IMG/VR virus record: IMGVR_UViG_3300045391_005020
Length of the DNA stretch: 64,000 nucleotides
Strand: one strand, 5' to 3'
DNA from: a virus
Taxonomy: Duplodnaviria; Caudoviricetes
The position numbers were made by a program, and so were the translations under genes. Of this stretch, positions 6,975 to 20,641 are shown piece after piece. The first letter of the stretch is position 1. Each line of letters starts with the position of its first letter. The notes beneath the pieces were generated by a model. It was not told where the DNA came from, searched no databases, and saw only the letters and a list, made by a program, of their open reading frames with translations.

Positions 6975-7064
6975 GTGGGTTTCCGTTGTTGGTTTGTACA
7001 ACCCACGATAGCCAGGTTTACTCGTAGTCAAGACAATGGACTTGACTCATATGTAAAAATAAGG

Positions 7065-7089
7065 AACCCCGGGCTTTTCGGCCCGGGGC
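7065..7089. terminator. GC-rich hairpin, probable terminator
   Basis: CCCCGGGC-TTTTCG-GCCCGGGG. Confidence 0.55.
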
Positions 7090-7458
7090 TCACAATTACC
7101 AATCCAACAACAAGTTAAACCAATCCAACCTGGTCGAAATTACCTACGCAGGGAGAGCGGTCAAACGTCGTCCTCTGTTATATTTCCGCTTGCTTCTGTG
7201 CTTTCCAGGGCATCCAGCGGATCCCTGTGGGGTTTGAGCGCCGGCACAAGGGGACTTTCCTCGGCGGCTGCGTAGATCGCCTCGATCCAGGCCATCGCCC
7301 CGAGACCGTGGTGGATCCTGACCAAAACCCGTATCTTGCACCCCAGGCAGGTGCCTGCTCCATGACAGATACACGTCTTCATACCAAGTCGATTGTGACG
7401 ATCCGGGAACGAAAGTCACGCGCCAGCTTGAGACCCCGTTTCCCGGCTGGGAAACCCA

Positions 7459-7781: not shown

Positions 7782-8081
7782 GTGATCGATGAAGAATTTG
7801 TAATCGTCGACGGCTCTGTCGAGTCGCCCCTGTTGACCGCTGAGGAGGCTGCGGCCTATCTGCGCTGTCACCCCAAGACGCTTGGTAAGCGTGGGGTGCC
7901 ATATGTCGACCTGGGGCATCGATCACACTTCTACCGGAAAGAGGACCTCGATGCTTGGATCGCGCAGCGGCTCAAGAAGCCGCTCGCATCCGCGCCGGCG
8001 CGCGTGGATGTCCTGGCGCTCGAGCCCGTGCGCGAGTACCTGCCGAAGCGCCGGAAGCGCGCTACGAGTCGAGCTTCCTGA
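7782..8081 (+). CDS. excisionase-like HTH (MerR/HTH_17) protein
   Basis: LLTAEEAAAYLRCHPKTL...YRKEDLDAWI; convergent with the integrase; has its own promoter motif at 7751. Confidence 0.85.
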   Translation: MIDEEFVIVDGSVESPLLTAEEAAAYLRCHPKTLGKRGVPYVDLGHRSHFYRKEDLDAWIAQRLKKPLASAPARVDVLALEPVREYLPKRRKRATSRAS

Positions 8082-9396
8082 CCACTTCCCTGAACACCGT
8101 GCGCGACGGGTGCGCGTATCGCTCGGTGAGCTTCGTCGAGCTGTGTCCCATGAGTCCCTGGATGTGGTAGATGTCCACGTCCTTCTCGGTCAACCGGGTG
8201 GCGTACGTATGGCGCAGATCGTGGATCCTGAGCGTCGGTTTTCCGAGTTCCTCCCGGACTCGTTCCCACGCCTTGCGGAGCCCGACGGCCGGGCGTGGCC
8301 CGAACCGCTGTTCTTCCGCGGCGAGCCGCATCTTCACTGCTTCTTCGCGGGTCAAGAAAACCCCGAGGTACTTGGGGCGACCGCCGCGGCCACTCCCGAT
8401 CTCGGCGCGGTACCGGATGGCGCCGCCCTTCTGGCGCACCTTGCGGACGCCGAGGATTTGTCCGCCAGGAACCGATCGCTTCGGGAGCCGCGTGTTGCGC
8501 TCGCGATCGAGCCGAGACAGGGTGCCAGCGTGCCACGGAAAGATTGGCTCGGCGGCGCGGGCCTGGGCGACCTGCTTCAACTCCGCGACCGTGGCGACAC
8601 CGGCGCGACGCAGCAGCATGTCGATCGTTCGGTTCCGGAGCGGAACCTCGCGCATCTTATGGTTCTTGGTCACGTACCCCAGCAGACGCACGAACGGCTC
8701 GAGCTTCTCGGTGAACAGGATCGAGCTCCACGTGAGCGCCAAACCTTCACGCCGCCGCGCGCCCGTATCCATCAAGAGCATCGCGTAGTCGCGCAGGTCG
8801 GGCGTTGGCTCGCACAGCGCCAGCAACCGATCCGCTTCGGCCTCGCTCAGGGCCAGGTAGTTCGCAACCCCGACCGGCACCTTTTTGAATTCCGGAACCG
8901 GCATCCCGGCTCCCCAAAACTTGTTCGCGTACCGGCACACCACCGTGACGTTCATGAGCGTGGTGTTCACCGTGTTGGGGGCCAAGCCGGCCGCCAGCAT
9001 GGCGCGTTTGAAATCGCTCAGGCGCTCGGTGGTCACCGCGGTCAGCGGCGTCTTCTCGCCCAGGAACTCGACGATCCGGCCGAACAGAGACGCGCGGGTT
9101 GCCAAGGACTGCTTGTAGGGTCGATCGTGGTAGCAGGGGGCCACCACCTCGACCAGGTAGTCGTCGAACGCTTTCTTGACCGTCAGAGCCGAGCGCTCCG
9201 GCGGTGCCACGGTCACGGCCATGATCGGCACATGCTGGGCCTGGTCGCGCGCCGCCTTCCGGAGATTCACCTTCCACTCGTCCTCGAACTCGCGCGCGTC
9301 GTTCTTGGTCGGGAAGCCGCGCCGCGTGAAGCGTTGGTTCTTAAACTCGAACTGGACGTAGTAGGAATCGGTGCGTTTGTCGAAGCAGGCAGACAT
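8062..9396 (-). CDS. int: tyrosine integrase with an N-terminal arm-binding domain and an internal AP2-like insertion
   Basis: Catalytic motifs TGARRRE, TKN, HDLRH, MGHSS, TERY; N-terminal YYVQF...RRGFPTKNDARE. Confidence 0.93.
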   Translation of the reverse strand: MSACFDKRTDSYYVQFEFKNQRFTRRGFPTKNDAREFEDEWKVNLRKAARDQAQHVPIMAVTVAPPERSALTVKKAFDDYLVEVVAPCYHDRPYKQSLATRASLFGRIVEFLGEKTPLTAVTTERLSDFKRAMLAAGLAPNTVNTTLMNVTVVCRYANKFWGAGMPVPEFKKVPVGVANYLALSEAEADRLLALCEPTPDLRDYAMLLMDTGARRREGLALTWSSILFTEKLEPFVRLLGYVTKNHKMREVPLRNRTIDMLLRRAGVATVAELKQVAQARAAEPIFPWHAGTLSRLDRERNTRLPKRSVPGGQILGVRKVRQKGGAIRYRAEIGSGRGGRPKYLGVFLTREEAVKMRLAAEEQRFGPRPAVGLRKAWERVREELGKPTLRIHDLRHTYATRLTEKDVDIYHIQGLMGHSSTKLTERYAHPSRTVFREVVRKLDS

Positions 9397-9912: not shown

Positions 9913-9987
9913 TGGTGCCCACGGCCACGAATCGCACGAGCGTCTCCTGAGTACAAAACAGGTGTCCTGCTACTGGACGACGCGGGC
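9913..9987 (-). tRNA. tRNA-Thr(TGT)
   Basis: Anticodon loop TTTGTAC; CCA. Confidence 0.8.
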
Positions 9988-12667: not shown

Positions 12668-13096
12668 CTAAAGAAGCGGAAGCTGTCCCGTCACGGGATC
12701 GATCTCGTGGTCCCAGTGTGGACCGATCGCCAGACACGTCTTGGTCGGAACCCCGTTGAACTCGGTGAGGCCGCGGTCTTCGATCAGATGACACCGTAGC
12801 CCACGAGCCTTCGCGGCCAGCTCGATGTCGAGCAAGGCCTGCTCGGACTCAACGTAGCAGCAGATCTTCCGGAAGTTGCCGAAGTACCAGGCTTGCTCGG
12901 CCGGATCCAGGAAGATCCCGTCGAGCTCGATTTTGACGTCGTTGTCCTTCAGGCCTGGACGGCTCTCGCGCGGCCCGAACACTTTGAGCATCAGGGCTGC
13001 GATGCTGGCATGAGATCCCTGAGCGATCATCTTACCCTTGCGCATATTGAGGTCCTTGCGGACCACGATCACTTGCTTAACCGAGTTGACTGACAT
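12668..13096 (-). CDS. pth2: peptidyl-tRNA hydrolase type 2
   Basis: KQVIVVRKDLNMRKGKMIAQGSHA, IEDRGLTEF, TCLAIGP, IDPVTGQLPLL. Confidence 0.95.
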   Translation of the reverse strand: MSVNSVKQVIVVRKDLNMRKGKMIAQGSHASIAALMLKVFGPRESRPGLKDNDVKIELDGIFLDPAEQAWYFGNFRKICCYVESEQALLDIELAAKARGLRCHLIEDRGLTEFNGVPTKTCLAIGPHWDHEIDPVTGQLPLL

Positions 13097-13135: not shown

Positions 13136-13212
13136 TGGTCCGCCGCGTAGGACGTGCGCCTACATCCCCCGGTTAAGAGCCGGGTGCATCTGTCTGTTTA
13201 TGCTTGCAGCGA
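13136..13212 (-). tRNA. tRNA-Lys(CTT)
   Basis: CCCGG-CTCTTAA-CCGGG; CCA. Confidence 0.9.
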
Positions 13213-13761: not shown

Positions 13762-14097
13762 TTACCTTTCAGGATTCCAGAGTTTGTGGTGACGAAACAG
13801 TTTCCTGGCCTCGCCCGAGATGGGCGCGGTCGCGAGCGCGGTAGCGGCGTTGCCGATATCGGGCTCTCGGAAGAGAGTGAGAGGAATGCCGGCCCCGGTG
13901 AGCCGCTCAGCTTCCTGGAGAAGCTCGAGCTCAGACGGGACACCGATCACGATCAGGTGGCTGATCTGGTCGGTCTGGTACGGGTGGAGGAGTGCGACCT
14001 CGTGGGTCGCGTGGGCAGCCTGAACAAGCTGCTGGGCCAATGGCAGGTCTAGCCTGACAAGGCAGTAGACGTAGCCGGGTAGCTAGGCGTTCTTCAT
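13762..14097 (-). CDS. Pth2-like (PTRHD1-type) protein with an in-frame amber codon at codon 5
   Basis: ATG AAG AAC GCC TAG CTA CCC... reads MKNA*LPGYVYCLVRLDLPLAQQLVQAAHA...FREPD...TALATAP; VRLDL and QAAHA match the Pth2 motifs VRKDL and QGSHA. Confidence 0.8.
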
Positions 14098-14384: not shown

Positions 14385-14460
14385 TGGTGCCCCCGGTGGG
14401 ATTCTCGCCCACAACCGCCGGGTTTAGAATCCGCCGCTCTTGATATTGAGCTACGGGGGC
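14385..14460 (-). tRNA. amber suppressor tRNA (anticodon CTA)
   Basis: Canonical spacing: GCCCCCG acceptor, GCTC/GAGC D-stem, GCGGA-TTCTAAA-CCCGG, GTGGG/CCCAC T-stem, A73, CCA. Only 3 Watson-Crick pairs in the anticodon stem. Confidence 0.75.
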
Positions 14461-14517
14461 ATGGGGGACTATGGCACAATATAACGCCACAGTCAAGGCC
14501 ATTGTCACGAATCGGAC

Positions 14518-15687: not shown

Positions 15688-15692
15688 AAAAA

Positions 15693-15767
15693 TGGCGCCC
15701 CCACGCGGTGCTGCCCCGCGCTCTCCTGATAGACAATCAGGCGTCTTAGCTGATGGACGATGAGAGC
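15693..15767 (-). tRNA. tRNA-Asp(GTC)
   Basis: CCTGA-TTGTCTA-TCAGG; G73; CCA. Confidence 0.88.
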
Positions 15768-15771
15768 AAAA

Positions 15772-15868: not shown

Positions 15869-15943
15869 TGGTGGATCCGAGGTGACTCGCACACCTATCC
15901 CTCTGCTTGCAAAGCAGCCGCTCTTCTTTGGAGCTACGAACCC
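15869..15943 (-). tRNA. tRNA-Ala(TGC)
   Basis: Anticodon loop TTTGCAA; G3:U70; CCA. Confidence 0.9.
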
Positions 15944-16884: not shown

Positions 16885-16961
16885 TGGTTGCGAGTCTTGG
16901 AATTGCACCAAGCTACTTGGCTTATGAGACCAGGCAGGATCTATCTCCTGTCGAACTCGCA
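16885..16961 (-). tRNA. tRNA-Met(CAT) (could be Ile2 if lysidine-modified)
   Basis: Anticodon loop CTCATAA; CCA. Confidence 0.8.
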
Positions 16962-16966
16962 TTGAA

Positions 16967-17042
16967 TGGTACGCGACGATGGATTCGAACCACCGGTCTT
17001 CTCGATGTCACCGAGTTGCTCTGGCCGCTGAGCTAGTCGCGT
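16967..17042 (-). tRNA. tRNA-Val(GAC)
   Basis: Anticodon loop GTGACAT; TTCGAAT T-loop; CCA. Confidence 0.9.
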
Positions 17043-17047
17043 ATGAA

Positions 17048-17122
17048 TGGTGGTCAGCCAGGGACTCGAACCCTGATTCTCCGGGTGTAGGCCGGGCGTT
17101 CTTGCCGTTGAACTAGCCGACG
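17048..17122 (-). tRNA. tRNA-Val(TAC)
   Basis: Anticodon loop CCTACAC (C33); CCA. Confidence 0.85.
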
Positions 17123-17127
17123 ATGAA

Positions 17128-17201
17128 TGGCACCCACTGATGGAATTGAACCACCGCCTGAACGTTCGTAGCGTCCCGGTCTTCCGTTAGCCTAAGCGGG
17201 C
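17128..17201 (-). tRNA. tRNA-Arg(ACG)
   Basis: GGACG-CTACGAA-CGTTC; CCA. Confidence 0.88.
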
Positions 17202-17224
17202 GTGTCCCTACCTGCGCAGGGAAA

Positions 17225-17299
17225 TGGTACTCGGTCAGGGTTCTGCCCCCTGTTCTCGCGGATGAAAGCCGCGGATCTTAGCTAGTGGACGAACCGAGC
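17225..17299 (-). tRNA. tRNA-Glu(TTC)
   Basis: CGCGG-CTTTCAT-CCGCG; CCA. Confidence 0.88.
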
Positions 17300-17304
17300 A
17301 TGAA

Positions 17305-17380
17305 TGGGCCAAGAGACCGGATTCGCACCGGCATCACGGGAGACACAATCCCGCATCCTCACTGTTGGACGACTCTAGGC
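17305..17380 (-). tRNA. tRNA-His(GTG)
   Basis: CGGGA-TTGTGTC-TCCCG; G-1 and C73; CCA. Confidence 0.9.
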
Positions 17381-17385
17381 ATGAA

Positions 17386-17460
17386 TGGGTGACCCGCGAG
17401 GATTCGAACCTCGAGCAGCGAGATCCAAAGTCTCGCGTTCTACCATTGAACTACAGGTCA
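17386..17460 (-). tRNA. tRNA-Gln(TTG)
   Basis: CGAGA-CTTTGGA-TCTCG; U1-A72; CCA. Confidence 0.9.
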
Positions 17461-17614
17461 GTGAAAAAGGTCAGGCGCTCTTCCGGGTTAAGCTAGCAAG
17501 ACAAGGGCCTGGGCGCATGGCGTCGATCGCCGCTTCCGCGCTGTTCCGCGAGTGTCGTCGAGGCCTCGACGACTGCTCTTCTTGGACGGGATTCGAACCC
17601 GCATCTCCTGAGAG

Positions 17615-17689
17615 TGGTAGTCCTACTGTGTGCTGCCCACAGTTTGTCCGGCTGAGAACCGGGTGTACTAGCTGGTGTACGATAGGACC
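17615..17689 (-). tRNA. tRNA-Glu(CTC), nested in a second tRNA-like frame
   Basis: CCCGG-TTCTCAG-CCGGA; CTGTG-GGCAGCA-CACAG; CCA. Confidence 0.8.
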
Positions 17690-17784
17690 AAGAAAAAGGA
17701 GTCGGCCAGGTCAGCTGGCATTGATATCTGCGTAGGTCGGAATACCCGGCGCACCGGGGCGACATCGCATACGACTCCGAAGAT

Positions 17785-17860
17785 TGGCGGCGCCGACAGG
17801 ACTCGAACCTGTCGCCTTCCCGTTAGGACCGGGACGCTCTACCGGATGAGCTACGGCGCT
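17785..17860 (-). tRNA. tRNA-Arg(CCT)
   Basis: TCCCG-GTCCTAA-CGGGA; CCA. Confidence 0.9.
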
Positions 17861-17900
17861 CTGACCGCGCGCACGAAATGTGGCTCGCGCGCACGGAATG

Positions 17901-17974
17901 TGGCTGGACCGGAGGGATTCGAACCCTCACGCCCGCGTTTAGAAGGCGCGGCTCTGATCCGATCAGGCGGTCCC
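17901..17974 (-). tRNA. tRNA-Arg(TCT), atypical D-arm
   Basis: CGCGC-CTTCTAA-ACGCG; TTCGAAT T-loop; G73; CCA. Confidence 0.75.
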
Positions 17975-18028
17975 GAAACTTGACACATGAGCCAGAATTC
18001 GTCTGCTCTGACCCGAAAGGATTTACTC

Positions 18029-18268
18029 ATGCCCATGAGTCGAGCAGGACGGGCCGCGGTCGCGGCAGCAGCCAAGAAGCGTTGGAGGCTGATCAAGGCT
18101 GGAAAGATCCGGAAGCCGAAGGTCGGCCGCAAGGCCGGCGGACGCAACAGTGCAAAATTATCGATCAAGTCGTCCGGTCAGTCCGGGCTCAAAGAAACCG
18201 TGAAGGCGTTGAAACAGCTCGGGGCCGCGGCGGGATGCCGGGTCGAAGTGACGCTCGTCCCGAAGTAG
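18029..18268 (+). CDS. small basic nucleic-acid-binding protein
   Basis: MPMSRAGRAAVAAAAKKRW motif; Lys/Arg-rich. Confidence 0.55.
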   Translation: MPMSRAGRAAVAAAAKKRWRLIKAGKIRKPKVGRKAGGRNSAKLSIKSSGQSGLKETVKALKQLGAAAGCRVEVTLVPK

Positions 18269-18580
18269 TTACTTGGTCCAGTGAGGGGTGTTAAGCATCA
18301 TCGCATGCGCCTCGGTCTGGATATCGCTGAACTCGCGCTCACTCATTCCGGACTTGATGGCCTCGATCTGGAGTCTCGCCAACAGAGCGGCTGCGAGGCC
18401 TAGGCAGGTCTTGAGTGGACCGCGATGGAAGGTTCCGAATAGGGCCTCGTTGGTCCCGGTCGTCTCGTCTTGTTTGACCATCGAGATCACGCACGCGATT
18501 CCGCGGCTCTGGAGCTCCGAGATCAATTCGCGATCGGGTACGAGTTTCAGATTCATGACGGTTTTGTAGCCAGACCGCAA
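18269..18580 (-). CDS. hypothetical protein (similar N-terminus to 27465-27788)
   Basis: NL..VPD.ELI.EL.SR..ACVI pattern shared between the two. Confidence 0.55.
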   Translation of the reverse strand: MRSGYKTVMNLKLVPDRELISELQSRGIACVISMVKQDETTGTNEALFGTFHRGPLKTCLGLAAALLARLQIEAIKSGMSEREFSDIQTEAHAMMLNTPHWTK

Positions 18581-18597
18581 TGCGATCCAGCCAGAAA

Positions 18598-18671
18598 TGG
18601 CAGCCAGGCAGGGAATCGAACCCCGATATCGTGGTTAACAGCCACGTGTAATACCGTTATACGACCCGACT
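18598..18671 (-). tRNA. tRNA-Asn(GTT)
   Basis: CGTGG-CTGTTAA-CCACG; G73; CCA. Confidence 0.92.
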
Positions 18672-18711
18672 AAATGTCGGCCGTCCTCGACCTCTGCCGA
18701 GGACGGCCCAC

Positions 18712-18728
18712 AAGAATTGTTCCACAGT
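18712..18728. repeat. leader arm of the 17-bp inverted repeat
   Basis: aagaattgttccacagt, complementary to 7459-7475. Confidence 0.85.
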
Positions 18729-18734
18729 ATAGAG

Positions 18735-18748
18735 TTTTCAAAGACAGC
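18735..18748 (-). promoter_or_regulatory. boxA-like antitermination site at the head of the tRNA region
   Basis: GCTGTCTTTGAAAA versus the consensus TGCTCTTTAACA. Confidence 0.65.
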
Positions 18749-18750
18749 CT

Positions 18751-18832
18751 GAAACGCATGAACCCCAGGCTTTTGGCCTGGGGTTCGGGAGAGTCAGCGC
18801 AGAAGATGCTGTGTTACTCTCGGACCCCCAGG
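18751..18832 (-). terminator. attenuator: terminator hairpin with a competing antiterminator
   Basis: GAACCCCAGGC-CAAAA-GCCTGGGGTTC (11 bp). Its 5' arm plus the upstream ACTCTC pairs alternatively with CCTGGGGGTCCGAGAGT at the end of the leader ORF. Confidence 0.7.
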
Positions 18833-18948
18833 ATATCGCCATTACCGCGTTCAGTACCGACACAAATTCCCGTAGTCACGGCTTGCGGTTTGGCATGCCA
18901 TGTGGGCTTGGTCATCGCGGCTGGATTTCTGAGGGCTATAGAAAGCAT
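18814..18948 (-). CDS. 44-aa leader peptide of the tRNA region
   Basis: AGGA SD, ATG...TAA, encoding MLSIALRNPAAMTKPTWHAKPQAVTTGICVGTERGNGDILGVRE; TTGACT-N16-TATCTT promoter upstream. Confidence 0.7.
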   Translation of the reverse strand: MLSIALRNPAAMTKPTWHAKPQAVTTGICVGTERGNGDILGVRE

Positions 18949-18977
18949 GATGTCCTGGCGTCCCAAGATAACGCCCA

Positions 18978-19507
18978 TCACTTGGAAGTCAAGCTAACGG
19001 GCGAGTTCTTCCAGACGCCGCGGATACTGGTGGCGATCCAGACAACCTGCAGTGCCACAATCGCCCACGCGCTGGTCTCCCAGCCATAGATGGCCAAGAA
19101 AATGTCGCTGACGATGAACCACACGAAGCCCCACATGCGGGTGCGGGAGACCTGGCTGGCGACCAACAGGGCGCCGAGCAAACCGGCCGCGGCAGCCGGC
19201 CACTGGCACAAGAGCGCGATGTCGTGCCAGGTCACTTCTGGAGTCCTCGGCGGGCTTGTTCGATCAGGTACTGAACCATCCTCGGATCGAACGCGGCGAT
19301 AAATCTCCGGATCTCATTCGCTTCCGGTCTTGATGGGCTCACTTCACATACCGAACCGTCGTCCTCGCCATGATATTCATGGCGCTCCTCGAGGTACACG
19401 CGCTCTTGCTGATCCTGCGACTGCGCGAGACGCCAGTCGCGATCGTGCACTGCTGAACAGATGTTCTCCAGCCAATCGAGTTCTTGAGCCGACAACAAGT
19501 CTTCCAT
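18978..19507 (-). other. two small genes: membrane protein (18978-19235) and hypothetical (19232-19507)
   Basis: Three TM-like segments in the first; coupled ORFs. Confidence 0.55.
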
Positions 19508-19516
19508 TGGAGATCC

Positions 19517-20641
19517 TTATTCGGAGACGCAGCTCGGATAGTCCGTCACTTCACCAGGCAGATACGTCCCGGTGTAGCCTGGGTAATTCCACGCTGCGTA
19601 GTATGACATCGTGTAGGCATCGAGCGTCAGACTCTTGGTCGTGGTGACCGTTGGGTACGTGACCGACCAATCCGTCACCGTGACCGCGAGCAACCACGGC
19701 CCCGATGGTATGCTCGCCGCATCGAGGAAGTAGTTCGAGGGCAAGCCCGTCGCGTGTGTATTCTGGTACGCGGTCACGCCGCTAACGGTTACCAGACTGG
19801 TTCCCGAGAACGGGATCGCGGTGATGGTGTTCGCCGATCCAGTGGTCAGAACAGTAACGTTTGGCGATGCGTTGATAGCACCCGGGAACGTGAGCATCAC
19901 CAGCGAGAGTTTGTAGCTGACGATAAATCGGGCGGTCGTGCCGCCGCTTGATGTCGCCCAGATGACGGAACGAAGGGTCGTCGGCAGCTTCACCAGATAT
20001 CCTGGATGCTGACCGCCTGGCAGCGTCGTGTACGAGCTAAGACCGCGACCACCAAGGTAACTGTCGTTCGCAAAGCCGCTCGATGATAGACCGGTAGCAG
20101 CGGCGAGCTGACGCGTGATGAAGTTGTCGCCGAAGTCATGGACCGCCATGAGCATCAGGTTGTTTCTGGTGATCGAGGTCCTGCCGGAAGACGGAGCGAA
20201 GTTCTGGGTGTTGCCGTATGCGATGCCGTCGCCCCACTGACCGTAGAGCTCGTTGGTGACGTAGTCGGACGGTGCAAGCACTGTCGACGTGTTGGTATGG
20301 AAGATGCTCGAACAACTGCGCACGTCGTATGCGCCGGCACCAGACGCGACCCAGCGAGACATGACATTGTTGTCATCAGCCGGCGTTCCGAATCCGCACG
20401 CGTTTGGCGGGTTGATGCCGGTAGCCGTCATGTTGTCGATCGCGCACACGCTGGCCGCGTTGGTGACCAACCGCAGTATGTTCCCTACCGCGTCCGCGAA
20501 TGTCGACGTTGGGGTCTGGCCCGCTGCGCTGAAGTTCAGCAGGTAGTTCGCGCGCTGCGAAATTCTCGGAAGCTTCCCGATGAAGTTCGTCGGCGAAGTC
20601 CCCGGGATCTTGATGTATTCGCCAGCATGATCGGTCGGCAT
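19517..20641 (-). CDS. Ser/Thr/Gly-rich putative virion protein
   Basis: 374 aa, beta-rich composition. Confidence 0.5.
   Translation of the reverse strand: MPTDHAGEYIKIPGTSPTNFIGKLPRISQRANYLLNFSAAGQTPTSTFADAVGNILRLVTNAASVCAIDNMTATGINPPNACGFGTPADDNNVMSRWVASGAGAYDVRSCSSIFHTNTSTVLAPSDYVTNELYGQWGDGIAYGNTQNFAPSSGRTSITRNNLMLMAVHDFGDNFITRQLAAATGLSSSGFANDSYLGGRGLSSYTTLPGGQHPGYLVKLPTTLRSVIWATSSGGTTARFIVSYKLSLVMLTFPGAINASPNVTVLTTGSANTITAIPFSGTSLVTVSGVTAYQNTHATGLPSNYFLDAASIPSGPWLLAVTVTDWSVTYPTVTTTKSLTLDAYTMSYYAAWNYPGYTGTYLPGEVTDYPSCVSE

Follow-up and report, generated by a model that had tools for sequence, protein, structure and literature searches.

The 64,000-nucleotide (nt) stretch of DNA analyzed here, referred to as the window, is IMG/VR virus record IMGVR_UViG_3300045391_005020 (Duplodnaviria; Caudoviricetes). 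It carries a phage tRNA array on the minus strand, preceded by a leader in which a promoter, a short open reading frame (ORF), several hairpins and a boxA-like element follow one another before the first tRNA gene. An earlier note, made from the sequence alone, had described this leader as a codon-sampling leader-peptide attenuator that may switch on the tRNA genes when tRNAs run short. The best-supported description of this leader region, judging from its sequence, is that of the 5' leader of a phage tRNA transcription unit in the style of a ribosomal RNA (rrn) operon. The unit extends from 18992 to ~7053 (~11.9 kilobases (kb)) and comprises the promoter, the leader, boxA, one strand of a stalk, the tRNA genes and ORFs, the second stalk strand and a terminator, with about 25 phage tRNA genes and a few ORFs as its content. 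The features on which the analysis turns are given below; all leader coordinates are those of the minus strand, and comparisons are made with the sole relative found, a groundwater phage on a contig of 213,586 base pairs (bp), examined as the two loci L001 and L083.

18987–18992, minus strand: –35 hexamer TTGACT, within the last codons of the upstream gene for an 85-residue PnuC-like protein
18965–18970, minus strand: –10 hexamer TATCTT, separated from the –35 hexamer by a 16-nt spacer
18953–18956, minus strand: AGGA, Shine-Dalgarno-like, 4 nt before the ATG at 18948
18814–18948, minus strand: leader ORF, MLSIALRNPAAMTKPTWHAKPQ...LGVRE, 44 codons plus TAA (TAA at 18816–18814)
18877–18902, minus strand: H-1, a 9-bp hairpin within the ORF, CAUGGC-A-UGC / GCA-A-GCCGUG, spanning the end of a Thr codon to a Val codon (part of TWHA..QA)
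18816–18832, minus strand: region 2, the end of the ORF, CCUGGGGGUCCGAGAGU, running into the stop codon and pairing with 18794–18777
18789–18821, minus strand: H0, GAGAGU : ACUCUC; the stop codon lies at the mouth, and the two phages do not differ in the outer 6 bp
18760–18786, minus strand: H1, an 11-bp GC-rich terminator-shaped hairpin, GAACCCCAGGC, loop CAAAA, GCCUGGGGUUC; 11/11 of the stem identical in the relative
18751–18759, minus strand: interrupted U-tract AUGCGUUUC after H1; the tail of the relative is UUGCGUUUC
18732–18748, minus strand: boxA-like element, core UCUUUGAAAA at 18744–18735
18712–18728, minus strand: 5' strand of the leader-trailer helix, ACUGUGGAACAAUUCUU, directly 3' of boxA
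18679–18708, minus strand: H2, a 13-bp hairpin ending 7 nt before tRNA-Asn
18598–18671, minus strand: tRNA-Asn(GUU), first of the array; 72/74 positions identical in the relative (97%)
14468–14496, minus strand: internal promoter-like site TTGACT-17-CATAGT, before the CUA-anticodon tRNA; counterpart at L083 4957–4985
10505–10531, minus strand: internal promoter-like site TTGACA-15-TATGAT; counterpart at L083 9774–9800
7459–7475, minus strand: 3' strand of the leader-trailer helix, 4 nt past the CCA of the last (Trp-like) tRNA
7053–7091, minus strand: operon-end intrinsic terminator, hairpin 7091–7064, with a d'Aubenton-Carafa score (d) of +11 and a strong U-tract

The window has a GC content of ~60%, and nearly all its genes are small and on the minus strand. 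The same DNA is present in soil and groundwater metagenome assemblies, and the protein neighboring the leader has matches to its own sequence on contigs of up to 214,858 bp; given these contigs and that of the relative, the window is read as part of an uncultured jumbo phage. The proteins flanking the leader are 47–59% identical between the two phages. Searches for further relatives covered several collections. A DNA and protein similarity search of 50,697 GenBank phages with the window gave no match, a scan of IMG/VR with the neighboring protein and three leader patterns gave no genuine match, and a protein scan of the JGI metagenomes gave none. An 18-mer pattern had 34 matches in the JGI metagenomes, all attributable to chance except for a Hainich groundwater lineage, which was the relative already known. 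An exhaustive HMMER search with the 374-residue neighbor returned nothing beyond the relative already known and a single remote fragment, carried by a contig of 2.6 kb, and the integrase, used as a search anchor, yielded nothing useful on further relatives.

The earlier note had suggested looking for the same arrangement at other tRNA clusters. In the relative, the promoter hexamers, the ORF, the switch segments, the boxA block and the hairpin before tRNA-Asn are all kept, which supports the order of promoter, ORF, alternative hairpins, boxA and tRNA as a conserved functional unit, beyond what chance would give. Near-identical strain variants from groundwater runs showed no differences across the 242 nt from 18672 to 18913, while the flanking genes differed by 2.7–5%. 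Because this segment is invariant among the strain variants and its parts are conserved in the relative, the leader is regarded as a selected element at the RNA level. The whole leader also folds more stably than shuffled versions of itself (z = –4.7). The helices of the relative were compared by hand, since the RNAalifold consensus on a MAFFT alignment was unreliable around 1-nt indels in H1 and H2. A scan of 17000–20000 with Rfam 15 (E up to 1) returned only tRNAs and noise, with nothing in 18672–18992, including T-box and riboswitch families.

The promoter that the earlier note had proposed from TTGACT was found at its place together with TATCTT, and both hexamers are identical in the relative (–35 at L001 11647). 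The conservation of the –35 hexamer is confounded by coding, since it overlaps the conserved C-terminal codons L-T-S-K of the upstream gene. At the –10 position, GTTATCTTG is kept in non-coding sequence of both phages, with a spacer that differs at 7 of 16 positions. TTGACT-16-TATCTT was the sole such site in a promoter scan of 17000–20000, and the promoter pattern has one exact match in the 64 kb, where 0.01 would be expected by chance. The AGGA that the note had taken as a Shine-Dalgarno sequence is present in the window, in a 9-nt insertion that is absent from the relative. Two in-frame starts further upstream, GTG 18981 and ATG 18978, overlap the stop codon of the preceding gene, and ATG 18978 is destroyed in a natural strain variant. 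The upstream gene itself (18978–19235, minus strand) encodes an 85-residue membrane protein that weakly resembles PnuC nicotinamide-riboside transporters in their N-terminal portion (E = 4e-4, below the cut-off), and this protein is 59% conserved in the relative.

Downstream of the promoter, the RNA could adopt two alternative structures that involve the end of the ORF. The segment from CTGGGGG to TAA (18814–18831) is identical in the relative at 16 of 18 aligned nt (89%). The earlier note had paired the last codons of the ORF with a sequence that includes the 5' arm of an 11-bp hairpin; the hairpin (H1) was found at 18786–18760 and the pairing is real, but it is interrupted, with 18832–18816 and 18794–18777 forming 7 bp, an internal loop and 6 bp. 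H1 starts 27 nt past the stop codon of the ORF, and its stem is shaped like that of the operon-end terminator, from which it differs by one compensated pair (the counterpart of this terminator in the relative is at L083 ~12990–13075). H1 and its flanks are kept in the relative at 45 of 50 nt, identity over the sequence between ACUCUC and boxA, H1 included, is 90%, and the ~55 nt around H1 are conserved as much as the tRNA itself. H-1, which lies within the ORF, keeps its stem in the relative with one change from G·U to A-U, while 3 of the 6 loop positions have diverged. The inner stem of H0 was considered as a case of covariation and downgraded, because each phage forms its 4-bp inner stem in a different register.

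Before the 3' arm of H1 has been made, the minimum-energy fold of the nascent RNA is a competing helix, at –24.1 kcal/mol in the window and –22.6 kcal/mol in the relative. This helix consists of CCUGGGG (CUGGGG in the relative) paired with CCCCAG(G) of the 5' arm of H1, plus GAGAGU:ACUCUC. The helix, which would act as an antiterminator, uses the 3' part of the ORF and shares CCCCAG(G) with H1, so that the two are mutually exclusive. Once the 3' arm of H1 is made, H0 together with H1 is more stable by 7–9 kcal/mol, and leaving the antiterminator by the direct path means crossing a barrier of 5.8 kcal/mol in the window and 3.4 kcal/mol in the relative. An objection that the antiterminator is too weak, with the terminator state lower in energy and the barrier low, was withdrawn, because the Escherichia coli trpL leader, treated by the same method as a control for the case of a ribosome halted on the Trp codons, also gives a barrier of 5.8 kcal/mol. 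Judged against this control, the energetics are compatible with a kinetic attenuator. The earlier note had suggested co-transcriptional folding as a check, and the antiterminator is the favored early fold in both phages. The geometry that the note had likened to trp and his is also present: the stop codon belongs to the 5' strand of one helix, and a hairpin of terminator shape competes with this helix. H2, next to the first tRNA, behaves differently in that it is only 63% identical in the relative with all pairs kept, five of them changed on both sides; it has no U-tract and d = –24. Invariant switch segments beside a covarying H2 are what would be expected of sequences with two pairing partners, and a sequence-specific binding protein would have the same effect.

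The boxA-like motif that the earlier note had placed between the hairpins and the first tRNA is present at 18748–18732, between H1 and tRNA-Asn, and its core UCUUU begins 15 nt past the end of H1. It agrees with the boxA-like consensus of Bacillus subtilis rrn operons, AUGAUCUUUGAAA, at 9–10 of 13 positions with a contiguous core of 9–10 nt, although the consensus of the host may differ; in B. subtilis the motif also follows a small hairpin (PMC13753749). Agreement with the gamma-proteobacterial consensus GYTCTTTAANA (PMC5725501) is 7 of 10 positions, and this consensus again may not be that of the host. A scan of 185,579 species genomes in GTDB with the boxA pattern gave 41 matches, where ~30 were expected by chance, and one was a genuine rrn leader: in a metagenome-assembled genome (MAG) of a deltaproteobacterium (L077), GCUCUUUGAAAAC, 5 nt and GUGGAAC lie 72–95 nt before the 16S gene. 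The motif is likely to be a site for Nus factors, a view that we favor by a modest degree on the strength of this resemblance. The boxA block was also considered as a second promoter (TTGAAA-17-AATTCT, or a weak –35 with TATACT); the promoter scan did not call it, and the relative has TATACA. The presence of boxA and the stalk strand, which together are kept at 32 of 34 nt in the relative (94%), accounts for its conservation better than a promoter does.

The stalk strand that follows boxA is the perfect 17-bp complement of a sequence at the far end of the array (18728–18712 with 7475–7459), 11.2 kb away, for which the chance expectation is 0.00. The relative keeps a 14-bp version (L001 11915–11928 with L083 12650–12663), of which a core of 12 bp is identical. 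In the relative, the extension of the stalk has moved to the other side, where an inserted U in the leader faces A and G faces C. The earlier note gave too little weight to this rrn-like setting of the region and to the conserved promoter-like sites within the array.

The ORF between the promoter and H0 has a homolog in the relative (L001 11682–11825) that is open over 47 codons, with aligned ATG and aligned TAA, and the two differ in length by 9 nt, in frame. Their nucleotide identity is 69%, compared to 65–71% for neighboring genes. Of the 41 aligned residues, 24 are identical, while the other five frames give 16–22 identities. The raw ratio of nonsynonymous to synonymous change (pN/pS) is 0.54, the lowest of the six frames (0.72–0.80 for the five controls), compared to 0.49–0.50 for three neighboring genes, and LSI, KPT and GI of the peptide are retained through synonymous changes. 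The AGGA of the window also speaks for translation, and in the relative the ATG lies 7 nt after the –10 hexamer, about where the transcript should begin, a position compatible with a leaderless start. Some of the conserved residues TWHA..QA, on the other hand, fall within the stem of H-1, a hairpin that is conserved except in its loop. The peptide alignment had no homolog among 5.8 billion called proteins. A plus-strand ORF of 107 residues (18674–18997), open in both phages, was set aside as probably a shadow frame, being uncalled and built of the reverse complements of the hairpins and boxA. Taking these data together with the contrary points given further below, translation of the leader ORF seems somewhat the more probable state of affairs.

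The codon make-up of the ORF was central to the earlier note. A recount gave the same figures, with 36 distinct codons among 44 and 18 amino-acid types, Phe and Tyr being absent; all four Thr, all four Gly and all three Ile codons, both Lys and both Glu codons, three Pro codons, and AGA, CGA and CGC are included. Nor was tRNA-Phe or tRNA-Tyr found in the array even at relaxed ARAGORN thresholds, as the note had said. The note had seen in this composition a leader that samples nearly all codons, so that depletion of tRNAs by anticodon nucleases (PrrC, RloC or PARIS-type) would switch on the tRNA genes as a counter-defense. Under a stop-free Markov null of local composition, 30.8 ± 2.2 distinct codons are expected, with P(≥36) = 0.014–0.018 for a statistic that was picked after the fact; real genes have 26.4 ± 2.5 distinct codons per 44 and are the wrong null for this ORF. 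In the relative, 36 of 47 codons are distinct (P = 0.078). Codon diversity is only marginally above chance, and high diversity with a low GC content at third codon positions (GC3) is largely that of any frame free of codon-usage pressure; the GC3 matches neutral local composition, so that a deliberate enrichment of rare codons is unsupported. Several points do favor sensing of tRNAs. With 16 amino acids represented in its tRNA set, the window's phage has a tRNA of the matching amino acid for 91% of the leader residues (P = 0.012 under the Markov null and 0.074 when real gene windows are the reference), Phe is missing from both the leader and the tRNA set of the window and present in both in the relative, and a PTH2 peptidyl-tRNA hydrolase is encoded in the same operon. 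These statistics are nevertheless post hoc and marginal. The match at the codon level is not significant (P = 0.13–0.21), and if codons are read strictly, the phage lacks tRNAs cognate to GGA, GGG, CTN and TCT. Coverage of the relative's leader is 77% by its own tRNA set (P = 0.25) and 87% by that of the window, and since this leader suits the window's tRNAs better than its own, the idea of a leader designed to sample or mirror the tRNA set fails. Furthermore, scattered single codons would be less sensitive than the tandem runs of known attenuators, and nothing ties the locus to nucleases, a connection that is purely conjectural. A codon-sampling sensor of general tRNA depletion is, in our estimation, very improbable.

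The reading that we prefer for the module formed by the ORF, H0 and H1 is a translation-coupled attenuator, which would be the most likely single explanation while remaining clearly short of an even chance. A host-type sigma-70 promoter, supported by conservation, would start the RNA just before the short ORF, whose last 17 nt with the stop codon would provide the 5' strand of a helix (H0 plus the CCUGGGG:CCCCAGG extension). This helix would tie up the central part of the 5' arm of H1, which resembles a weak terminator. A fast ribosome that reaches the stop codon would cover region 2, allowing H1 to fold and a part of the polymerases to terminate; with the ribosome absent, or lagging within about codons 1–33, the competing helix would form first and read-through would increase. 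Past H1, the boxA-like site would probably load host Nus factors and confer resistance to Rho over the long, mostly untranslated array, and the 17 nt after boxA, which by computation pair with the operon trailer, may form an rRNA-style processing stalk. The gate would sense overall translation speed or ribosome availability on a leader that is rich in A/U at third positions and slow to read, with no designed codon panel, and would act as negative feedback on tRNA supply. The full proposition, that a jumbo phage keeps its tRNA genes in an rrn-like unit and that a leader-peptide attenuator responsive to the general speed of translation controls entry into it, is put forward tentatively.

A number of observations weigh against the attenuator. 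The relative has no Shine-Dalgarno motif. The GC3 of the ORF is 0.52 in the window and 0.51 in the relative, with a flat profile over the three codon positions as in non-coding DNA, against 0.80 ± 0.08 for neighboring genes in 44-codon windows, so that the earlier note was right to set its codon usage apart from that of the GC3-biased neighbors. Gene callers left the ORF uncalled in both phages, and antisense frames are also open across the leader (97 and 91 stop-free codons in both phages). The distance from the –10 hexamer to the stop codon is 151 nt in both phages despite the different ORF lengths, which points to constraint at the RNA level, and such constraint could mimic coding conservation, as the conserved peptide blocks lie partly within RNA stems (H-1, H0). 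No runs or tandem repeats of regulatory codons suited to the controlled product occur in the ORF. H1 appears to be a marginal terminator with a broken U-tract, as the note had cautioned of its tail AUGCGUUUC, and scores –4.5 in the window and +5.0 in the relative, compared to +11 and +28 for operon-end terminators. The critical switch helices are invariant and thus offer no support from covariation, and the cross-lineage comparison consists of two lineages only. The note had also cautioned that internal promoters might drive parts of the region, and the two promoter-like sites inside the array are conserved in both phages; a gate at H1 would for that reason govern mainly the promoter-proximal part and not the whole array alone. 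Many of these points fit an untranslated rrn-like leader with an incidental ORF and no translation sensing, in which the hairpins would be structural or would bind protein or RNA polymerase. They could resemble boxB or put, or serve in processing or protection of the 5' end, and with boxA and the stalk could make transcription processive and resistant to Rho and let the tRNA precursors be processed in an ordered way. The placement of the boxA-like motif after a hairpin as in rrn leaders, the 17-bp leader-trailer helix, the fold z-score, the flat GC profile, the missing Shine-Dalgarno motif of the relative, the constant 151 nt, the peptide blocks within stems and the poor terminator score of H1 all agree with this explanation, as does the finding of 0 substitutions in 100 nt of the ORF among the strain variants, where synonymous sites should drift. 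It does not account for the coding signal of the ORF frame, which beats the five control frames, nor for the retention of start, stop and an in-frame length change. A terminator-shaped hairpin between promoter and genes usually marks regulation, and the near-invariance of the ORF end and the 5' arm of H1 would be unexplained unless a sequence-specific binder exists. We regard an untranslated leader as the next most likely explanation, only slightly less probable than the attenuator.

Such a binder is the basis of another explanation, in which the attenuator would rely on a protein or RNA, from phage or host, in place of the ribosome; this factor would bind H0/H1 and choose between the terminator and the competing helix. 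TRAP, PyrR, BglG and lambda N are known parallels for sensing of this kind. Sequence-specific recognition would suit the tRNA-like conservation around H1 as well as its terminator shape, but no candidate binder was identified, no Rfam match was found in the leader at E up to 1, and the conservation of the ORF would be left unexplained; we consider this unlikely. Somewhat less likely still is a separate transcript of ~200 nt, ending at H1 and serving as the mRNA of the 44–47-residue peptide or as a small RNA, with the tRNAs expressed through leak-through and internal promoters. The pN/pS of the ORF, equal to that of real genes, the position of H1 shortly (27 nt) past the stop codon and the conserved internal promoters would suit this arrangement. 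It is opposed by the GC3 of 0.52, an outlier for genes of this phage (P < 0.01), by the weakness of H1 as a terminator, and by a peptide for which 5.8 billion proteins contain no homolog, while the presence of boxA and the stalk strand right after H1, pairing with the far end of the array, suggests transcripts that are meant to continue.

The preferred attenuator has its closest counterparts in the enterobacterial leaders. The thr and ilvGMEDA leaders are multivalent attenuators, while trpL and hisL are the single-amino-acid prototypes. As in all four, the phage locus has a promoter, a short ORF and a helix of the 3' end of the ORF that excludes a GC-rich hairpin with a U-containing tail, followed by the genes; the position of the stop codon is likewise such that the competing strand would be masked by a ribosome terminating there, and the barrier equals that of E. 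coli trpL. Unlike these attenuators, the phage leader would control tRNAs rather than biosynthetic enzymes, has no regulatory codon runs, a marginal terminator and a predicted leader ORF (preceded by no Shine-Dalgarno motif in the relative), and is followed by boxA and a stalk strand. In pyrBI of E. coli, the outcome is set by how closely the ribosome trails the polymerase, through UTP-sensitive pausing. The proposed gate would similarly depend on general coupling through a leader ORF that ends at a terminator and not on one cognate amino acid, but no pause site or nucleotide logic is evident in the phage leader.

The downstream part of the leader resembles bacterial rrn leaders in its sigma-70 promoter, its hairpin, UCUUUGAAAA 15 nt later and a strand that pairs beyond the last RNA gene. 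The boxA-like core is identical to that of B. subtilis rrn and is also found in the rrn leader of the deltaproteobacterial MAG. Unlike in rrn leaders, the stalk of the phage brackets 11 kb of tRNA genes and ORFs and not rRNA, an ORF and a terminator-like hairpin precede boxA, and the motif departs from the gamma-proteobacterial rrn boxA (7/10 of GYTCTTTAANA); Nus binding and RNase III cleavage of the leader are only putative. Among phage antitermination RNAs, lambda nut has boxA and boxB, and HK022 put is a two-hairpin RNA. The leader shares with them a cis-acting RNA with hairpins and boxA near the start of a long unit, including two adjacent conserved hairpins, H0 and H1. It differs in its H1 loop, which is CAAAA or CCAAAA and so has no counterpart to the G of the lambda boxB pentaloop GAAAA, in that the hairpin precedes boxA, as in rrn and not as in lambda, and in having no match in Rfam.

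The remainder of the unit contains a tRNA set that is larger than ARAGORN shows at default settings, together with a small number of protein-coding genes. These, and the start of the next unit, are as follows.

~17215–17290, minus strand: tRNA-Glu(UUC)-like, T-loop replaced by GGCAGAA, seen in the alignment with the relative
16885–16961, minus strand: tRNA-Met(CAU), relaxed ARAGORN only
15692–15770, minus strand: tRNA-Asp(GUC)-like, T-loop GGCAGCA, encoded CCA; counterpart at L083 4444–4521; missed by ARAGORN and Rfam
14385–14460, minus strand: CUA-anticodon tRNA (amber-suppressor type), Rfam tRNA 50.4 bits (14388–14460), relaxed ARAGORN
13136–13212, minus strand: tRNA-Lys(CUU), relaxed ARAGORN
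12668–13096, minus strand: PTH2 peptidyl-tRNA hydrolase (E = 9e-29), co-oriented in the operon; conserved at L083 8046–8477
9913–9987, minus strand: tRNA-Thr(UGU), Rfam 41.9 bits (9916–9987), missed at default thresholds
8062–9396, minus strand: tyrosine recombinase of 444 residues (Phage_integrase, E = 4e-20), inside the operon in both phages; L083 10759–12075
7480–7550, minus strand: tRNA-Trp(CCA), 71 nt, relaxed ARAGORN only
7031–7005, minus strand: promoter of the next unit, TTGACT-N15-TATCGT, similar in type to the leader promoter and conserved in L083

The 79-nt block of the tRNA-Asp-like gene is 98.7% identical between the phages, which exceeds the canonical tRNAs. The homolog of the tRNA-Glu-like gene in the relative (L083 3228–3301) has a normal T-loop and is called by ARAGORN. 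An odd T-loop is common to at least two tRNAs of the window's phage. The homologous tRNA genes at 15869–15943 and L083 4291–4365, which are 82% identical, differ in anticodon, the window having Ala(UGC) where the relative has Cys(GCA), and this pair may represent a switch of tRNA identity. A weak second PTH2-like ORF lies at 13762–14040, downstream of the CUA-anticodon tRNA.

Many large phages carry tRNA arrays, the expression, regulation and retention of which are largely unexplained. A full-text literature search of incomplete coverage found no paper in which tRNA operons, whether of phages or of bacteria, are described as controlled by leader-peptide attenuation or by boxA. We classify the locus as one that would apply leader-peptide attenuation and rrn-type antitermination, both of them known, to a phage tRNA operon: ahead of the tRNA genes of the phage, a leader of 320 nt combines an ORF/terminator competition with boxA and with a stalk of the rRNA type. 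If the gate does respond to translation speed, it would represent viral feedback control of tRNA supply, and attenuation would be extended from amino-acid operons to tRNA genes. The output of tRNA would then rise when ribosomes lag, through an early mismatch between codons and tRNAs or through an attack by the host on tRNAs, and this would bear on how phages handle codon mismatch and tRNA-targeting defenses. Should the ribosome play no part, the phage version of the rrn layout for antitermination and processing would still imply reliance on the RNA polymerase and Nus factors of the host.

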